A DNA stretch of 64,000 nt from an uncultured delta proteobacterium (GTDB lineage: Bacteria; Desulfobacterota; RBG-13-43-22): positions 32,001 to 96,000 of the forward strand of contig CAVQFQ010000008.1 in the NCBI GenBank assembly GCA_963711835.1, read 5' to 3'. Positions 8,034 to 40,464 of this stretch are shown here, in pieces (the first letter of the stretch is position 1; every line of letters starts with the position of its first letter). Made by a program: the position numbers and the translations under genes. Below the pieces are notes generated by a model. The model was not told the DNA's origin. It did not search any database and was given only the letters and a program-made list of their open reading frames with translations.

Positions 8034-9197
8034 TTACATCTGGATCCACCCCCCCATGGTGACGACGAAGCTGGAAAGATTTTGGGGCAGATAGGGGTTC
8101 AGGATTTCGGCCCGGCGGCTAAATTGAAAGCCGCCGCTGCGGGACAGATCCCCTTGGCTGACGATGGAGCCCAGCACCTGGCCGGAGCCTCTTTGGATAA
8201 GAGAACCGTTCGTCCAAAAAACACCGCAGAGCTCTTGGAACTGGTTTAAAATGATGTCCCGCCCGGCTATGAAAGCCGCAGTTACCCGTTGGACCTGGTC
8301 CGGAGAGGAAGACCCGTTTAAGATGATCGTACCCGTGGCCACTACGGTCAGGCCTCTCAAATCAACCCCCTGGAGGGTAACATCCCCGTCTATGAAAATG
8401 AGCCTCCCGCCCTGATCTCCTGATAAGCTCAGTTGCTGCGGGCCTGTTAAATAACCCTGGCCCGGCCTCTGGGACAGGGAACGCCATTCCTGAAAATCCC
8501 TTTCCAAAATTCGGGGCACGGCCACCTCGGCCTGATAATCGGTCCGGTTCGGATCAGAAGATTGGCTGAGGCTGTAATTCCAGGCCTTCAAATCGTCGAT
8601 GACCGAAGCCGGTTCGATTCTATAACCCCGATTGGCATGCAGGTTACTCCGGATATCGCCCCCGCCACTGAGCCGAAACTCACCGGCCGTAACGATCCCC
8701 TGTTTAAAAATGGAAGGGACATCTAAGGAACCTGCCGGGTCATTGCCGTAAAGGGTGGCCCGAATATGGGTCAGGGCCTGGTGAATGGGTTCCTTTCCGC
8801 AAAGCAGTATTTCGGCATAGGCCGGAAAAGGCTGGGGATCGTAGCGAAGGGCTTTGATCCAAAATTTATGCCGCCCCACATTGGCTGCAGCCGGTTCGGC
8901 ATCAGGTAAATTCATTTCAGCCGCCGACTTTTTCCATAAAAAGAGCCGGGGATCTGAGCGATAAGCAGACAGCAATTGCTGCAGGCCGGCTTCGGCGCTG
9001 TAGAAGGCCTTTAGACTTTGACGGTAATTGCTGCCGATCTGCAGCTCCGTGGTCGAGGTGATAAAGGCCGTGGTGCCCAGGAGGGTAATGACCAGCATGG
9101 TCAGTAACACCCCCACCAGGGCCGCCCCCCTTGATTCGGCCGCCGGGGCGGTTCTCAACCTGTTGCCCACCCTCCTCTGGTTGAAGGCGCTCGGCAT
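8034..9197 (-). CDS. pilX: PilX-like minor pilin / pilus assembly protein
   Basis: RGAALVGVLLTML (no Glu5), AFYSAEAGL; RBS AAAGGAGG before ATG at 9197. Confidence 0.75.
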   Translation of the reverse strand: MPSAFNQRRVGNRLRTAPAAESRGAALVGVLLTMLVITLLGTTAFITSTTELQIGSNYRQSLKAFYSAEAGLQQLLSAYRSDPRLFLWKKSAAEMNLPDAEPAAANVGRHKFWIKALRYDPQPFPAYAEILLCGKEPIHQALTHIRATLYGNDPAGSLDVPSIFKQGIVTAGEFRLSGGGDIRSNLHANRGYRIEPASVIDDLKAWNYSLSQSSDPNRTDYQAEVAVPRILERDFQEWRSLSQRPGQGYLTGPQQLSLSGDQGGRLIFIDGDVTLQGVDLRGLTVVATGTIILNGSSSPDQVQRVTAAFIAGRDIILNQFQELCGVFWTNGSLIQRGSGQVLGSIVSQGDLSRSGGFQFSRRAEILNPYLPQNLSSFVVTMGGWIQM

Positions 9198-9220
9198 ATT
9201 TTTACCTCCTTTCGGTCTGC

Positions 9221-10141
9221 TCAATTTCTTTTGAAGACCTGGGTCGTCAGCGTTATGGGAAGCGGATTCCCTCCATCACCACCCGGACGTGATTCGGCCG
9301 GCCAGGCCGTCAGCCAAAGGGAAAAACGCTCCGGGGTCTGGGCCGTTACTTTCATATCCATTACCCATTCGGCCAGCGGTTCAAAACCGCAGGCATTGAC
9401 CTTCCGTTTTATTACCGGCCGCCCCGGATCATGATACCTACCCTCCGGATCGTTGCTCTCATTAAAAACGGCGTAATGGACCAGACTGATTTCACCGACT
9501 TCCGTCCCCAGGGGATAGTCTTTTTTCAGGCCCTGGTTGCCGGCCTGGATGGGGTCGCTGTCAATGATCAGGGTGCGACCCCGGATCTCTTTTATCTGGA
9601 CATATTCGGCGGGTTTTCCGAGATAGAGGATATCCCAGGGATTAAATTGATCGGCCACCTCCGAGCTCCCCAATGATAATTCGATCCGGGTATCTCCTGT
9701 CCTGGCCCCGGCAGCCAGTTGGCTTGGGTTGGTTTCTCCGGAAAGAACGGTTATCAGGGAAAGGATATCGGGCTGAGATCCGCCGGGGGTAATAGTAACG
9801 ACCCCGCTCAGGGCCACCGACAGGGGAACCCTGGGTATAAAAGCATTCGGGACCCAGTGCCCTAAGTCGGCCAGGAAGGCCGGTGACAGGCCGGGGTAGC
9901 CGGCTCCGCGCAGGTCGCGAACCATGAGTTCCATAGAAGCCCGGAGTCCCTGTTGGCTGTTGACCTTCCTCTCCTGGTTTTTATAGCCCCGGGCCTGGCA
10001 AAGAAACAGGTCACCCAAAAGGCCTAACACCAAAAGCCCCAGGGATAAGGCCACGATCATTTCGATTACGGTAAATCCCCTGTTTTTCTTCCTCTTTTTT
10101 TCCATGGCTTTTCTCTTTCTGGTTTGGGCAGATGCACCCAT
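9221..10141 (-). CDS. pilW: PilW-like minor pilin (start may be ATG 10105)
   Basis: Prepilin site RGFTVIEMIVAL; MVRDLRGAGY motif. Confidence 0.8.
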   Translation of the reverse strand: MGASAQTRKRKAMEKKRKKNRGFTVIEMIVALSLGLLVLGLLGDLFLCQARGYKNQERKVNSQQGLRASMELMVRDLRGAGYPGLSPAFLADLGHWVPNAFIPRVPLSVALSGVVTITPGGSQPDILSLITVLSGETNPSQLAAGARTGDTRIELSLGSSEVADQFNPWDILYLGKPAEYVQIKEIRGRTLIIDSDPIQAGNQGLKKDYPLGTEVGEISLVHYAVFNESNDPEGRYHDPGRPVIKRKVNACGFEPLAEWVMDMKVTAQTPERFSLWLTAWPAESRPGGDGGNPLPITLTTQVFKRN

Positions 10142-10179
10142 CTTTAATCTGGGAATTTATCTCTAACATTCAATGCAAG

Positions 10180-10394
10180 GGTCATAGGGGGTCTTGTTTC
10201 AGGGGTTGTCCACCCCAAGGCCATAAGCTTGTTTGCCGGGCCAAATTCGGGATCTAATTCGGAGGCAGGCCTACACCTTTGTCCGAAACAGGCTGAGTGT
10301 AAATCCTGCCTCGAATCAAACTTAGCCGTCCTGGCCGGATTAGAAACTCATAATTACCCTTTGGACAACCCATAAAACAAGACCCCCTATGACC
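10180..10394 (-). repeat. Rod-like palindromic repeat family, copy D (diverged, inner unit only)
   Basis: IR ggtcatagggggtcttgttt...ttgtcca / tggacaa...aaacaagaccccctatgacc; reverse complement aligns by eye with the core of copy A (ttgtcc-aaagggta, ccggcc, taagtttg, ggtgt.ggcctg, caagct, ggacaa). Confidence 0.75.
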
Positions 10395-10426
10395 AACCCA
10401 AAATTTCAAATAGCTTTGCTTAGGAT

Positions 10427-10897
10427 CTATTCCACCTTAACTCTGCCCTGTGAGGAGAGGGTGATCACTTTCTGCAGCCCGGTATGACGCAGGACCAGGG
10501 TTGTACCCAGGGCCGTGCCCCGAGGGCTGAAAACCGGGTCACGGCTGCTGCTGACCAGGTCTACCCGGGGTTGATAATAGAGACCGGCTGGATTGTTGAA
10601 CTGCCGGGCAAGTCCTTCCGGCTGCCCCGGCCAGCGAGAGGATTCCGTTTCGGAGGCCCTCTCGATGACATAGCCTTCCTGGTCCGGAAAAAATTGAATC
10701 CGATAATAACAATTCCGGCCGATGGCTTTCATCCGTGCGGATCGCAAATCCGAAACCAAGGTTTGAACCGCCCCTTCCAGCCGCAGCCGGGGGATAACCT
10801 GGTTAAACCCATACCCGCTTATGGCCAGAAGGAGCCCGAGTATAAATAGTGCCGTTACTAATTCCAGGATGGTAAATCCGGTCTGTTTATTGATCAT
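10427..10897 (-). CDS. FimT/FimU/GspH-like minor pilin
   Basis: GFTILELVTAL prepilin motif; LVSDLRSARMKA; FSPRG; SSQGRV. Confidence 0.85.
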   Translation of the reverse strand: MINKQTGFTILELVTALFILGLLLAISGYGFNQVIPRLRLEGAVQTLVSDLRSARMKAIGRNCYYRIQFFPDQEGYVIERASETESSRWPGQPEGLARQFNNPAGLYYQPRVDLVSSSRDPVFSPRGTALGTTLVLRHTGLQKVITLSSQGRVKVE

Positions 10898-10931
10898 GGC
10901 TTTACCTCAGTCCAACGCTCCTGAAAACCAT

Positions 10932-11254
10932 AAAATTTTGGTAACGTTCAAAAGTTATAGCACTGGCGTAATATTGCCTGATTTGGGGACCGGGGGTCTC
11001 GATTTCAAGGTTGTCCGAAAGGGTATCCGTAGCCCCAACCCGGCCCGAATTTATAAGTTTGTTGGGAGCCGGGCATTCATCCCGCCGAGGCGGGACTTTG
11101 GTGTTGGCCTGTTTCTAAACCCACCTATAAACTTCCTGCCCGGGTTCAAGCTGCCGGCGTTTTGGCGGACAATCCTTGAAATCGAGACCCCCGGTCCCTT
11201 TCCATCGGGTATCAGAAATATAAGGCCCAAACTTTTGAACGATACCAAAATTTT
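10932..11254 (+). repeat. Rod-like palindromic repeat family, copy A (MITE/REPIN-like)
   Basis: 25-bp outer IR aaaattttggtaacgttcaaaagtt / aacttttgaacgataccaaaatttt; inner IR 10986-11017 / 11166-11198; homologous to 31654-31870 and 37975-38290. Confidence 0.88.
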
Positions 11255-11400
11255 GGGCCGGATCGGGACGTTGAGTAACCTTTTGGACCATCTTTGAAAA
11301 GAGACCCCCAGACGCCCAAATCGAGACAAATGGAATTTTTCAGGAAACTTTAAGGACGAAACAGGGATGGAGGCCTGGAGGTTGGTCCGGGCCGGGAAAA

Positions 11401-12171
11401 TCAGCCTAAATACCAGGTCAGGAGGGTTTGTCCAAAAAAAAGATGGATAAGGGACCCTAAAGAAAGAAAGGGACCGAAGGGGATGGCAAAGGTGCGACTT
11501 TTTTTCCAAATCACCATCAGGAGAAGACCGACGATCGTCCCTGTTAGAGAACCGACCAAAACGGAGACTAAAACCCCGCTCCAGCCCTGGAAGGCTCCGA
11601 TCATGGCCAATAATTTGATGTCCCCTCCTCCCAGGCCTTCTTTGCGGGTCAGCAATTCGTAGCCCAGGGCCAGTAGATACAAAAACCCTCCTCCGGCCAA
11701 AAGACCTATCAGGGAAGCCTTCCAGCCCGGGTTTCCCGAGACCCAGGAGAGAATGAAACCGATCACCAGACCGGGGTAAGTAATCTCGTCGGGAATAATT
11801 TGATGATCCAGATCGATAAAGGAAACCGCCGTTAAGGAACAAACCAGGATCAAACCCTGCAGCAAGGCCCAGGAAAAACCGGATTGCCAGCCGACCAGGA
11901 CCATCAGCAAGGGAGTCAGCAGTTCGATCAGGGGATAGCGCCGGGATATGGGGAAATGACAATAGCGACATGTCCCCCTTAAAAGCAAAAAGCTTACCAA
12001 CGGCAGATTATCTAAGACCGACAGAGGATGGTTGCAGTGGGGGCAATGGGATCCGGGCCAAACTATCGATTCATTCCGGGGGATCCGGTAAATGCAGACA
12101 TTTAAAAAGCTCCCGAAAATCAACCCCAGAATAACCAGGGCCGGATAAAAAAGCCAGTCTAACCCGTCCAT
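11401..12171 (-). CDS. pilD: Prepilin peptidase/N-methyltransferase PilD
   Basis: GSFLNVCIYRIP, CPHC...CRYC, FIDLD, GGGDIKL, IPFGPFL; ATG 12171 has RBS GGAGAAG. Confidence 0.95.
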   Translation of the reverse strand: MDGLDWLFYPALVILGLIFGSFLNVCIYRIPRNESIVWPGSHCPHCNHPLSVLDNLPLVSFLLLRGTCRYCHFPISRRYPLIELLTPLLMVLVGWQSGFSWALLQGLILVCSLTAVSFIDLDHQIIPDEITYPGLVIGFILSWVSGNPGWKASLIGLLAGGGFLYLLALGYELLTRKEGLGGGDIKLLAMIGAFQGWSGVLVSVLVGSLTGTIVGLLLMVIWKKSRTFAIPFGPFLSLGSLIHLFFGQTLLTWYLG

Positions 12172-12220
12172 TAGCTTCTCCAAAAAGGTTTTGCCTTCTC
12201 TATAGGGCCTGTCCAAGTAT

Positions 12221-12248
12221 TTGACAAGGATTTTTTCTCCTTTATAAT
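12221..12248 (+). promoter_or_regulatory. sigma-70 promoter upstream of the Sua5/YciO gene
   Basis: TTGACA-16 bp-TATAAT. Confidence 0.7.
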
Positions 12249-12387
12249 AAAAAGATCCGGAAGGCGGCCGGCACTGTTCTTTTATCGGCGGCTGGGAAGG
12301 GATCGGCAGCCATAACGGCTTTTTTAAAACGACCCGAGCTGTAAAGCGGGTTGTCATAACCGTCTTAATGTTTACAGCGGGAAAGGA

Positions 12388-18376: not shown

Positions 18377-18642
18377 TTGGCCGTGCTAAGCGGGGAGTTA
18401 GCGGTGCCCTAAACCCGAAATCCGCTCATGCGGGGCTGAATCTCCTTTCGAGGGCTCAAACGATATCCCAGTTTCTTTCGCTAAAAGCCGGATTGGACGT
18501 TACGCAACAAACGGTTATGAACCCCGTCAGGTCCGGGAGGAAGCAGCGGTAAATAATGCGGTTTGTGTCGTGACCAACTCTAAGCTGTGTTTTTATTCGG
18601 AGGCCTGTGATGGCGTTGGTTCGACAAAGGATGCACGGCCAA
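18377..18642 (+). ncRNA. ffs: Large (Alu-domain) bacterial SRP RNA
   Basis: Helix 8 CCGTCAGGTCC-GGGA-GGAAGCAGCGG; 5' Alu-like GCCGTGCTAAGCGGGGAG..AGCGGTGCCC; ends pair (ttggccgtgc / gcacggccaa). Confidence 0.92.
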
Positions 18643-31430: not shown

Positions 31431-31592
31431 CTTCTCCCCTTTTTAAGTCGACCCAAACTGTTTTTTCCCATGGTTTAGACTTAAAAGTTCCCCTTACGGA
31501 TATTTTGAGGCTCCACTACAATAATAAGGGGTTTTTACTTTTTTTTTCGGCCAGTTGTCAAGCAAAATTTTCATTAAAAAAATCGGGATAGG

Positions 31593-31907
31593 CCCAAAGT
31601 TACGTGATTCTCATATCGGAGTGGTAGCTACTTAAAATATTAATTCACCCCAAAGGGCTTCGGGGGTCTTGAATTCAAGGATTGTCCGCCAAAACGCCGG
31701 CAGCCTGAACCCGGGCAGGAAGTTTATAGGTGAGTTTAGAAACAGGCCAGCTCCAAAGTCCCGCCTCGGCGGGATGAATGCCCGGCTCCCAACCAACTTA
31801 GAAATTCGGGCCGGGTTGGGGCTACGGATTACCTTTCGGACAACCTTGAAATCAAGACCCCCGAAGCCCTCGAAGATTGGAGTGCTTAAAAATCACGTAA
31901 CCTTGGG
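31593..31907 (-). repeat. Rod-like palindromic repeat family, copy B
   Basis: 31654-31870 is a near-identical reverse complement of the copy A core; outer IR cccaaagttacgtgatt / aatcacgtaaccttggg. Confidence 0.88.
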
Positions 31908-31967
31908 ACAACTTCTAAAAACAGGCGGACTACCCCCAACCCGGAAGGGTCCGGGTGGTGAGCTGAT

Positions 31968-32686: not shown

Positions 32687-33622
32687 TCACAACGATAAAT
32701 GACGGCGAAAATAAGCGATGGTCTCTATTAATCCCTTTTCCAAGGCTACCCGGGGGGTCCAACCCAACTTTTCTCGGGCCAGTCTGATATCCGGTTTTCT
32801 CTGGACCGGATCGTCCTGGGGCAGGGGTTTATAGTTAAGGGACGAGCTGGAACGGGTCAGGCCTTTGACCTGCTCAGCCAGTTCCAGGATGGTGAACTCC
32901 TTGGGGTTCCCTAAGTTGACCGGACCGATGAAAGGCTCCCCTTCCATCAAGGCCATCAGGCCTCGGACCATATCCGAAATAAAACAAAAAGAGCGTGTCT
33001 GACGGCCCCGGCCATAGATCGTAATGGGGTCTCCCCGCAGGGCCTGGACGATAAAATTGCTGACCACCCGGCCGTCATTAACGGCCATCCGTGGGCCGTA
33101 GGTATTGAAGATGCGGGCAATGCGGATATCCACCCCATGCTGGCGATGGTAATCCATCATCAGGGTTTCGGCCACCCGCTTGCCTTCATCATAACAGCCC
33201 CGGGGACCGATACAATTTACATTTCCCCAATAGGTCTCTTTCTGAGGGTGGACCGAGGGGTCGCCATAAACCTCCGAGGTGGAGGCTTGAAGAATGCGGG
33301 CTTTTACCCGCTTGGCCAACCCCAGCATATTCAGGGTCCCCATGACATTGGTCTTAACGGTTTTGACCGGATTGAATTGATAATGAATCGGGGAAGCGGG
33401 GCAGGCCAGGTTATAAATCTGATCGATCTCCAGCGTTATGGGATTAATTAGGTCATGGCGCAGGATCTCGAAATGGGGATTGGCCCGTAGATTGAGAATA
33501 TTTTCTTTTGAGCCGGTGTAATAATTGTCGACACAGATGACATCATGGCCTTGATCCAGCAAGGCTTCACAGAGGTGGCTGCCTATGAAACCCGCCCCAC
33601 CGGTTACCAATATTTTCTTCAT
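32687..33622 (-). CDS. UDP-glucuronate decarboxylase (UXS-like SDR)
   Basis: [48 protein letters not shown]. Confidence 0.93.
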
Positions 33623-33645
33623 GGTCTCTCCTTGTTAGGATCCAT

Positions 33646-33781
33646 AAATCCGAAATTTGAGGTACGAAATCCGAAACAAGCACGAAGGTCAGAAATCCAA
33701 ATGATCAAAACAGGAACGTTTCGAATTTTGAAATTTGGTCTTTTGCATTTGTTTCGAGTTTTGAAATTCGGATTTCGGATT
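33646..33781. repeat. Heptamer-periodic imperfect palindrome (aaatccg/cggattt type)
   Basis: aaatccgaaa...aaatccgaaac on the left arm; ttcggatttcggatt on the right arm. Confidence 0.7.
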
Positions 33782-33948
33782 GCCTTTCCCCTCTTTTGAC
33801 AAAGGGGGGATTTTTCAGATGAGTTAACTTCCGTTTTTCTTATGGCATGGGGAGACCCTTTTGTCAAGGAAAGGCCGTTTTTTGCCCTTTACCCCCTTGG
33901 TATCTTATGTTATTAATCTAAGCCAGAAATAGGAAGAAGGAGGCTGCC

Positions 33949-36659: not shown

Positions 36660-37974
36660 AATCGATAACCCCTCCCGGCCGCGTCTGGCCATTCATACCC
36701 TGGGTTGTAAAGTCAACCAGTTTGAATCCGCCTGCCTGGTAGGGCAATTTCAGGCCAAGAACTGGCTAACGGTGCCTTTCAAGGACCAAGCCGAACTTTT
36801 TTTAATCAACACCTGCGCGGTTACGGCCGAAGCCCAAAGGCAATCCACCCAAATAGTCAGGCAGGCCATCCGCCGCCATTCCCAGGCCCTGATCATCGTT
36901 ACCGGTTGTGTGGCCCAATTATTTCCCCAGGTTTTTGAAGAAATCCCCGGTGTAGATTACATCGTGGGGACCTTCAATAAATTTTCGATACCGGACCTTA
37001 TTTCGTCTCTAACCAAGGAGGAATACGCCCGGACAGCCATCCTTCCGGAACCGCCCGGCCCTCTCCTTCAAGGGGCCTTTCCCTTAGATTATAATCGGAC
37101 CCGGGCCTTTTTGCGCATTCAGGACGGATGCAACGCAGGCTGCAGCTACTGCCTGGTTCCTCAGGCTCGGGGGTCTTCCAGGAGCGTGGCCCGGGAGGAG
37201 GTGCACAGGGGCATAAGAGCCCTAGCCGGCCAAGGCTTTAAAGAAGTGATCCTGACCGGGATTCACCTGGGACAATACGGACAGGACCTATCCCCGGCCA
37301 CGGATTTGGTTTCGCTGCTGGCGAGCCTCCTCGAAGAAAGGCCGGAAATTGCATTTCGCTTAAGCTCCCTGGAAGCGCAGGAAGTTTCCCCGGAATTGAT
37401 GGCCTTATTCAAAAGCCGGCCCAACCTCTGCCCCCATTTCCATATCCCTCTGCAAAGCGGCGATGATTTCCTGCTCCGGAGGATGAACCGCCGCTATACC
37501 CGGGAAGAATACCGCCACCTGATTCAGGCCCTCAACCGGGAATTGCCCCGGGCCTCCATCGGGACGGATATTATCGTCGGCTTTCCGGGTGAAGATGAAC
37601 AAGCCTTCCGGCAGACCCTTGACCTGGTCCGGGACCTGCCTCTTTCCTATCTGCATCTCTTCCCTTATTCCCCCCGTCCCGGGACCTTGGCGGCCCTTAT
37701 CCAGGATCAGGTCCCCGAGCCCCTGAAGAAAAAACGGCTCGAGATGTTGAGGGAAATCGACCGGCTGAAGCGGCAAGAGTTTGCCGCTCAGGCCTTAGGG
37801 CAGGTCTTTTCGGCCTTGGTTCTGAAACCCTTGAAAGAAAAAGGGTGGTATGAAACGTTAACAGAAAATTATTTGACGGTCCGGGTTGAAGGAAACCTGA
37901 GAAGGAATGACCGCGTCCGGATCCGCCTGACTGCGGTCGGACCCCAGGGAATCCGGGGGGATTTGGCCGCCTGA
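36652..37974 (+). CDS. mtaB: tRNA t6A37 methylthiotransferase MtaB
   Basis: TLGCKVNQFES, NTCAVT, IQDGCNAGCSYC, LTGIHLG; TTG start at 36652 with GGAGG. Confidence 0.9.
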   Translation: MSKIDNPSRPRLAIHTLGCKVNQFESACLVGQFQAKNWLTVPFKDQAELFLINTCAVTAEAQRQSTQIVRQAIRRHSQALIIVTGCVAQLFPQVFEEIPGVDYIVGTFNKFSIPDLISSLTKEEYARTAILPEPPGPLLQGAFPLDYNRTRAFLRIQDGCNAGCSYCLVPQARGSSRSVAREEVHRGIRALAGQGFKEVILTGIHLGQYGQDLSPATDLVSLLASLLEERPEIAFRLSSLEAQEVSPELMALFKSRPNLCPHFHIPLQSGDDFLLRRMNRRYTREEYRHLIQALNRELPRASIGTDIIVGFPGEDEQAFRQTLDLVRDLPLSYLHLFPYSPRPGTLAALIQDQVPEPLKKKRLEMLREIDRLKRQEFAAQALGQVFSALVLKPLKEKGWYETLTENYLTVRVEGNLRRNDRVRIRLTAVGPQGIRGDLAA

Positions 37975-38290
37975 ATTTTTTGGTAACGTTCAAAAGTTGA
38001 GGCCTTACGGTTCTCCCGTAGAGGGGTCCGATGGTCTTGATTTCAAGGTTGTCCAAAGGGCAACCCATCGCCCAAATCCGGCCCAAACCTTAAAGTTAAT
38101 TCGGTGCCGGGCATACACCCAAGACGATAAACAGCTTTGGTGTTGGCCTGTTTCTGGACTACCTTATAAACTTCCTGCCCGGGTTCAAGCTATCTGTGTT
38201 TTGGTGGACAATCCTTGAAATCAAGACCATCGGACCCCTTTTCAGGGTGAGATAACTTTTGCCTCAACTTTTGAACAGTACCAATTTTTT
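37975..38290 (+). repeat. Rod-like palindromic repeat family, copy C
   Basis: Outer IR ttggtaacgttcaaaagttgaggc / gcctcaacttttgaacagtaccaa; inner IR aggggtccgatggtcttgatttcaagg / ccttgaaatcaagaccatcggacccct. Confidence 0.88.
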
Positions 38291-40377: not shown

Positions 40378-40464
40378 TGGTGCCGAAGAGGGGACTCGAA
40401 CCCCTACAGGCGTTCACCTACTAGACCCTGAACCTAGCGCGTCTACCAATTCCGCCACTTCGGC
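40378..40464 (-). tRNA. tRNA-Leu (CAG)
   Basis: GCCGAAG acceptor stem, anticodon arm CTAGG-TTCAGGG-TCTAG, long variable arm, GTTCGAGTCC, encoded CCA. Confidence 0.97.

Follow-up and report, generated by a model that had tools for sequence, protein, structure and literature searches.

What maintains a family of rod-like repeats between the genes of an uncultured delta proteobacterium? The original prediction concerned a 64,000-nucleotide stretch of DNA, here called the window (positions 32001-96000 of contig C8 of the source genome, G000). It described four copies with covarying stems and ascribed them to selection on structure, either in a noncoding RNA or in a REPIN-like single-stranded DNA element. 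The questions are therefore which unit moves, what is conserved within it and whether that conservation is of RNA or of DNA.

Results

All four rods lie in the window with the arm variants that had been quoted, and their inner units, predicted at 213-218 bp, measure 213-216 bp. Each repeat has two layers, an inner palindromic cassette of 215 bp and a shell of 40-75 bp on either side. Copy 1 (10132..10423, minus strand) places a 215-bp cassette (10180..10394, minus strand; arms at 10180-10212 and 10362-10394) in a type C shell, without a terminal inverted repeat, and is inserted behind a TAG-type motif, with a second occurrence of the motif at the opposite end. Copy 2 (10940..11246, plus strand) is a 307-bp composite of shell A, which has ISH6-type ends, and a 213-bp cassette (10986..11198, plus strand). 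The order within this cassette is arm, sites I-II-III, sites III'-II'-I', arm, with site I at 11011, II at 11040, III at about 11068, III' at 11106, II' at 11138 and I' at 11167. Identical 8-bp target duplications (AAAATTTT) flank copy 2 at 10932..10939 and 11247..11254. Copy 3 (31585..31915, minus strand) has a type B shell (331 bp in all, with a decayed 8-bp duplication) around a 215-bp cassette (31655..31869, minus strand) that is 95% identical to the copy 2 cassette over 203 bp despite the different shells. Copy 4 (37982..38282, plus strand) is a 301-bp composite of shell E, an A-type variant, and a 216-bp cassette (38023..38238, plus strand), and its 8-bp target duplications (AATTTTTT) lie at 37974..37981 and 38283..38290. 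The coordinates first given for copies 2 and 4 took in the shell and target duplication. A partial fifth copy had been overlooked: an older cassette remnant on the minus strand (11248..11316; repeat I4), consisting of an arm, site I and site II and matching model positions 2-63, ends at the copy 2 target.

Both copy 1 and copy 2 lie within, and interrupt, a type IV pilus cluster (8034-12357) that encodes a prepilin peptidase, a GspH/FimT-like pilin, another N-methyl pilin and PilX. A further high-copy repeat occupies about 33600-33800 of the window, where summed contig depth is 258-487 against about 15 elsewhere, and this segment is replaced in relatives.

The family is far larger than the four copies first counted. 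A profile HMM built from the four window cores gives 157 non-overlapping hits in G000, 104 of them full-length. The flanks of these 104 full cassettes are repeated elsewhere on both sides in 96 cases, on one side in seven and on neither side in one, such that 103/104 have a repeated outer shell. No conserved open reading frame is present, as predicted; the composites measure about 290-330 bp and carry frequent 1-2-base indels.

The predicted mobility is borne out by empty sites in related strains, taken from contigs assembled from sediment metagenomes. Such sites were found for copies 1, 3 and 4, and in each the whole composite is absent. The copy 4 site is clean in 4/4 runs; 309 bases are skipped (8 ambiguous), corresponding to the 301-bp composite plus one target copy. 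Runs X2, X4 and X5 each show the joined copy 3 site and X3 something similar, and one X2 contig links position 10127 with 10428, 9 other letters included, which is an empty site for copy 1. Among metagenome loci with a flank match in G000, some of them distant matches, 46/58 have no full core at the G000 site, and insertion polymorphism is therefore extensive. The inserting unit is shell plus cassette. Since the shell, too, is wholly missing from the empty sites, the unit seen to move is not the hairpin, contrary to what a REPIN-like single-stranded DNA element would require.

At least seven shell types with different target rules enclose one common interior. Terminal inverted repeats are present in shells A/E, B, D, G and H. 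Shell C (copy 1) has none; it shows TAG at both junctions, and its ends recur at many sites. Shells A/E (copies 2 and 4) and B (copy 3) combine inverted ends with 8-bp AT-rich duplications, and 22/28 A/E elements have flanking repeats that match at 7-8 of 8 positions. Duplications are about 10 bp for shell G and 8 bp for shell H, shell D ends in TATTAA-type flanks (a TA-type target), and shell F is a further type. Going by family rules, we take shell G to belong with IS4 and shell D with TA-targeting families. Shells also nest inside shells.

One shell could be linked to a described insertion sequence, a match of the kind that the original prediction had named as refuting it. The left 17 bp of copy 2 are identical to the right end of an ISH6-family element in genome G096 (locus L378). 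This element encodes a 451-aa ISH6 transposase (NF041731; 483.5 bits against a cut-off of 240), its other end is not intact, and no cassette was found at the ends inspected. The AT-rich 8-bp duplications of shell A/E fit the ISH6 duplication motif AANATNTT given in a published account, which also reports a Desulfobacterium member (PMC3942029). Shell A/E thus has both an end in common with an autonomous element and the 8-bp AT-rich duplication, and copies 2 and 4 have the properties of MITEs with ISH6 ends. Copy 3 likewise has the properties of a MITE, and no parent was found for it.

The 17-bp A end occurs in 5/401 genomes of the phylum. No ISH6 transposase gene was detected among the 21 family genomes, whose assemblies are incomplete, with the query used, and PF00872 has no match in G000 (89% complete). 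Among 20 loci with Mutator-type genes fetched from relatives, none has a cassette and none has shell B or H ends beside the gene. Other candidate parents were rejected: PF01610 (ISL3) has no match in G000, and IS1182/IS5 and IS110 genes or fragments are present, none with shell ends or a cassette. At locus L329, the subterminal sequence of an IS256-family element resembles one shell C end over about 16 bases; this element may be the source of shell C, or the likeness may be due to chance.

Several loci have unusual arrangements. D-type ends enclose other palindromic cargoes both in G000 and in further families of the phylum (G000:C13:34216-34509 and C17:43781-44049; loci L405, L406, L417, L418, L420 and L422), and the arms of one such family of 260-bp rods resemble cassette arms. 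At L107, the left shell is F-type and the right shell D-type. Small REP-like hairpins are nested in the cassette tip at L055, L059, L082, L106 and L107, extending the cores to 200-350 bp. An A-type composite at G000:C10:53479-55978 is split by a two-ORF DDE insertion sequence (PF01609).

A sequence-only model of the cassette matches 20/21 family genomes, with from 1 to more than 100 hits each; G018 (76% complete) is the genome without a hit, and G011 (98% complete) has a single weak one. Copy number across the family thus runs from 0 to more than 100, and where it is low most of the copies are decayed remnants. Partial hits in G006, G010 and G003 reflect contig ends, deletions or REP insertions, with some left without assignment. 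Under stricter filters, 0/146 genomes from other families of the phylum match. An exact pattern scan of 185,579 genomes found at least 55 loci in six assemblies, most of them titled Deltaproteobacteria or Thermodesulfobacteriota and one Pseudomonadota. Viral contigs gave seven short-pattern matches, none confirmed by the HMM, and zero matches to the right half; PLSDB has no match to copy 2, and a phage set has none to copy 1.

Two-ended shells in G000 were scored as 76 with a core and 30 without, and among the latter are a full copy scored in error, partial deletions and one shell with other cargo. The junctions of core-less shells fall at short repeats and look like microhomology deletions. 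Of 24 core-less shells checked, two have both flanks in a near strain; both carry the full core there, and the corresponding G000 shells lack all or most of it. Some core-less shells have a common junction at different sites, which suggests that these may themselves move.

The cassette also changes shells. When 62 cores are arranged on a tree, 20 changes of shell label are counted (minimum 5; 33.9 when shuffled); the labels came from regular expressions, at least two are wrong, and cores without a label were left out. Given the starred branches, each shell type needs at least 3-5 changes; copies 2 and 3 are sisters in the tree. Orientation varies as well, the cassette being inverted relative to its shell in 11/70 classifiable copies (34 were unclassified). 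Together, these results show a cassette that resides in shells, can be inverted, passes from one shell to another and is frequently deleted.

Within the cassette, the core is mostly 159-166 bp long, from TTGTCC to GGACAA. A near-perfect outer stem with arms of 33 bp stops 26-28 bp outside site I in 120/147 copies and usually begins with GG; the cassette edge, mostly with GG ends, shows no duplication. The conserved interior consists of three inverted motif pairs, I (TT(G/T)TCC), II (CCGG(C/G)CC) and III (GCAGG(G/C)C), spaced 28-30 bp from I to II, 27-31 bp from II to III and 45-47 bp from III to III'. This spacing holds in most of a set of 51 of the 62 scored cores and in 16/16 cores from two sister genera, in which the spacers are unrecognizable and the shell is a different one (H). 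The motif pairs, about 29 bp apart, are kept across four genera. The prediction that something is conserved beyond chance was therefore sound, and inside the cassette it is the motifs and their spacing that are kept while the spacers drift. Each arm has its own fixed choice between C and G at sites II and III, which produces a C-C and a G-G mismatch in the rod, and these are kept across genera. The same alternatives would allow sites II and III to pair within each arm over 4-5 bp; we give this pairing little weight because the neighboring position shows no compensation.

Private substitutions are 3.4-fold rarer in motifs (20/2624) than in spacers (240/9240). Eight same-site pairs, from loci found in a biased way, lean toward protection of the motifs in place (5/304 motif against 37/957 spacer differences, p 0.07). 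Selection acting on every resident copy, or repair templated by the hairpin, would also be consistent with the low private mutation rate.

Searches for familiar binding or expression signals gave little. The cassette shows no 10.5-bp periodicity, and the exact IHF consensus occurs in 0/66 cores. Site I was rejected as a DnaA box; an exact match to the box consensus is present in only 0/50 and 2/16 cores. Scans for promoters and terminators found none in the cassettes and one weak promoter-like hit, with three promoter-like sites (1.0 expected) and one terminator-like site (2.1 expected).

The closing stems differ in sequence yet remain paired, as first observed. In 78/89 A-D copies, those alignable without indels, double changes affect 45 arm cells (26 distinct, 11 of these being transversions), where about 2.6 would be expected, and a further 59 cells differ on one side only. 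This is the pattern expected from arm-to-arm DNA copying, which we suggest as the mechanism. One study describes how template switching produces compensatory stem changes in a single step (PMC8794818). In the same-site pair L289/L004, the cores have opposite orientations and both arms have changed together. Among four inverted B copies, a 1-base bulge follows the shell in two, the core in one and both arms in one. A site-specific invertible switch was rejected, given that these four copies, a small sample, have no fixed crossover point.

The fold of the interior is another matter. Copy 2 with its shell folds at z -10.2, with 0/100 shuffles as stable, and the predicted long unbranched hairpin holds for copies 2 and 3; across 36 divergent cores, however, the interior is weakly structured (mean z -1.1 forward and -0.8 reverse, the forward strand folding better in 19/36). 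RNAalifold on 39 divergent cores confines covariation to the outer stem. Helices II and III are paired in 92-95% of cells, with 0/12 pairs changed on both sides in 39 sequences; 2/4 tip pairs have double changes, in one or two cells each and three cells in total. The pairing of a spacer with its own partner is no better than with the partner from another copy (0.44 vs 0.42; 0.54 vs 0.54).

The strand arguments fared similarly. G-T pairs had seemed to favor one strand, but G-T and A-C mismatches number 35:31 in the orientation of the core and 18:14 on the transcribed strand. Three of the four window copies are indeed in the sense orientation, but of the 59 copies in co-oriented gaps genome-wide, 33 are sense and 26 antisense (p 0.43). 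By our own crude gene calls, all 97 scored copies are intergenic; co-oriented genes, predicted to bound every copy, do so at 59/97 genome-wide, compared with 1989/2651 background gaps. Rfam finds no family for the repeats and nothing credible at 10100-11400; over the window it detects only the large SRP RNA (18381-18638) and a tRNA (40381-40464). In RNA runs X12 and X20, the repeat appears as contigs and piles up as in DNA runs, which is uninformative on transcription.

A separate rod-like RNA candidate of about 170 nt lies between zapA and the next gene (likely rny), a gap that is the usual place of 6S RNA. It is conserved in about 18 family genomes (G000:C17, about 254890-255060; loci L035-L050 and L052) and is undetected by the Rfam 6S model. 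A short motif downstream of zapA resembled site III, and capture of 6S RNA by the cassette was considered and rejected; the Rfam 6S model (RF00013) finds nothing in G000. Homology to the zapA-rny RNA was likewise rejected, the cassette HMM scoring E 1.8 on 19 zapA regions.

Discussion

We tentatively favor the reading, at a likelihood a little short of even, that the repeats are non-autonomous transposons (MITEs) in which several pairs of IS ends surround one invertible palindromic cassette that helps copying, probably as a protein-bound scaffold for end pairing. Transposases supplied in trans would move each shell, and a host protein bound to the dyad-symmetric site of fixed geometry would align the two shell ends, by analogy with the central gyrase site of Mu. 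The 33-bp arms would be kept matched by template switching or arm-to-arm conversion, and the exchange between shells would occur by homologous recombination among dispersed copies. Because the cassette is often lost and decays where copying has stopped, yet intact full composites dominate in four genera and motif mutations are rarer, we infer that its conservation reflects selection during copying. Our searches found no binding protein, and no parent element with a cassette in G000, the fetched loci or the Mutator-type loci. Against the scaffold, D-type shells carry other palindromic cargo, so the cassette is not needed by all shells; nor does the scaffold account for the sharp boundary of the stem.

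That boundary, with its mostly GG ends and an edge free of duplication, counts in favor of a hyperparasite, in which a nuclease or an HUH (RAYT-like) enzyme would recognize single-stranded hairpin motifs and bring the cassette, by movement or homing, into MITE shells that would then disperse it. We find this doubtful. Repeated swaps between shells, the C-C and G-G mismatches kept across genera at sites II and III, and the insertion of REP-like hairpins in the cassette tip and in D shells all speak for it, as do 12 matches to Y1 transposases in G000. Yet shell flanks are found on 103/104 copies, and a search for copies enclosing or adjoining a RAYT gene came out against the idea, with a cassette hit within 4 kb at 2/11 Y1 loci and adjacent to 0/11. 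Nor is there a half-cassette/gene/half-cassette arrangement with matching arms in G000 or the fetched loci; the sole split copy contains an unrelated IS, and the core-less shells resemble microhomology deletions. We also think it unlikely that the interior is a neutral stuffer, a relic of an older element captured by nested insertion that gives a workable length and whose halves repair each other in the fold-back. Shells do nest in shells, there is other cargo of about the same size, copying from arm to arm clearly takes place, and most of the conserved motifs are ones that pair in the rod. Such repair predicts concerted change, though, and sites II and III show 0/12 pairs changed on both sides and two mismatches kept; spacer lengths, moreover, are fixed although the spacers do not pair.

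A function for the host is improbable. MITEs could have spread a site bound by a nucleoid or replication protein, or a stem of the RNase III type through which operon mRNA is tuned, with selection preserving every copy; this would agree with the intergenic position of all 97 scored copies, the depletion of private mutations in motifs and a 33-bp stem that forms on either strand. It agrees poorly with the missing match in G018 and the single weak one in G011, with the decayed copies, with the 46/58 metagenome loci that have no full core at the G000 site and with the lack of orientation bias. The least probable reading is the strand-specific structured RNA with a conserved rod fold. Single copies fold strongly, the outer stem covaries, and the motif pairs can make short helices with 92-95% of cells paired, but the interior has no covariation, strand preference or G-U excess, inverted copies exist, and neither Rfam nor the 6S model gives a match. 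The proposed selection on RNA structure finds no support in the interior.

As MITEs, the repeats are ordinary. ERIC, Correia/NEMIS and RUP are hairpin MITEs that are short, non-coding, intergenic, present in high copy, strongly folded back and flanked by duplications, and the present repeats are like them in these features; they differ in that the interior is exchanged among at least seven shell types and has fixed motif spacing across four genera. With respect to ISH6 (p-MULT 2, Mutator superfamily; NF041731), the 17-bp end identity and the 8-bp AT-rich duplications of shell A/E are alike, whereas the repeats have no transposase gene and neither the ends nor the targets of shells C, D, F and G are of this type.

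REPINs, as described in one report, are symmetric, extragenic and lineage-restricted, with conserved motifs and spacer length and with compensatory changes (PMC3116915). The cassette resembles them as a lineage-restricted, extragenic inverted doublet that forms a hairpin and shows compensatory changes. It departs from the REPIN/RAYT system in that the hairpin is not the unit seen moving, no RAYT is flanked by the cassette, and the carriers make target duplications. The 12 Y1/RAYT-like matches in G000, many for one genome, are mostly about 330 aa long, with short inverted repeats close by on both sides; they include C12:141793, C17:498780, C17:165498, C8:125762, C5:298416, C10:57915 and C17:331913. 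In phage Mu, a central strong gyrase site promotes end pairing via a host protein (PMC10052514). The cassette would be comparable as a central cis element that aids the pairing of transposon ends, a functional analogy for which the central position is observed. In contrast to the Mu site, which on that account is functionally asymmetric and serves 38 kb, the cassette is dyad-symmetric, sits in a 300-bp element and has no 10.5-bp periodicity, and any link to gyrase is an analogy.

New here are the empty sites, the ISH6 test, the fixed geometry and the exchange of the cassette. Our literature search, with ISfinder and most subscription journals outside it, returned no description of the cassette family or of a cassette common to MITE families. 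For searches that seek structured RNAs, the repeats carry a warning, in that stem covariation can lie far above chance without a strand or G-U signal. What is unusual is that shells whose ends and target rules differ have one conserved interior in common. The inside of a MITE is generally regarded as inert; this cassette, nearly gone from some relatives, has retained its motifs and their spacing as the intervening DNA drifted. A broader account is possible, though less likely than not: the cassette may be portable and lineage-specific, a transposition enhancer or a homing hyperparasite recruited by MITEs of unrelated transposase chemistries (ISH6, IS4-like, TA-targeting and without inverted repeats), traded among them and keeping its six-site geometry across the family. 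If the cassette does raise copying by unrelated transposases, it would be a portable enhancer with a putative binding protein.
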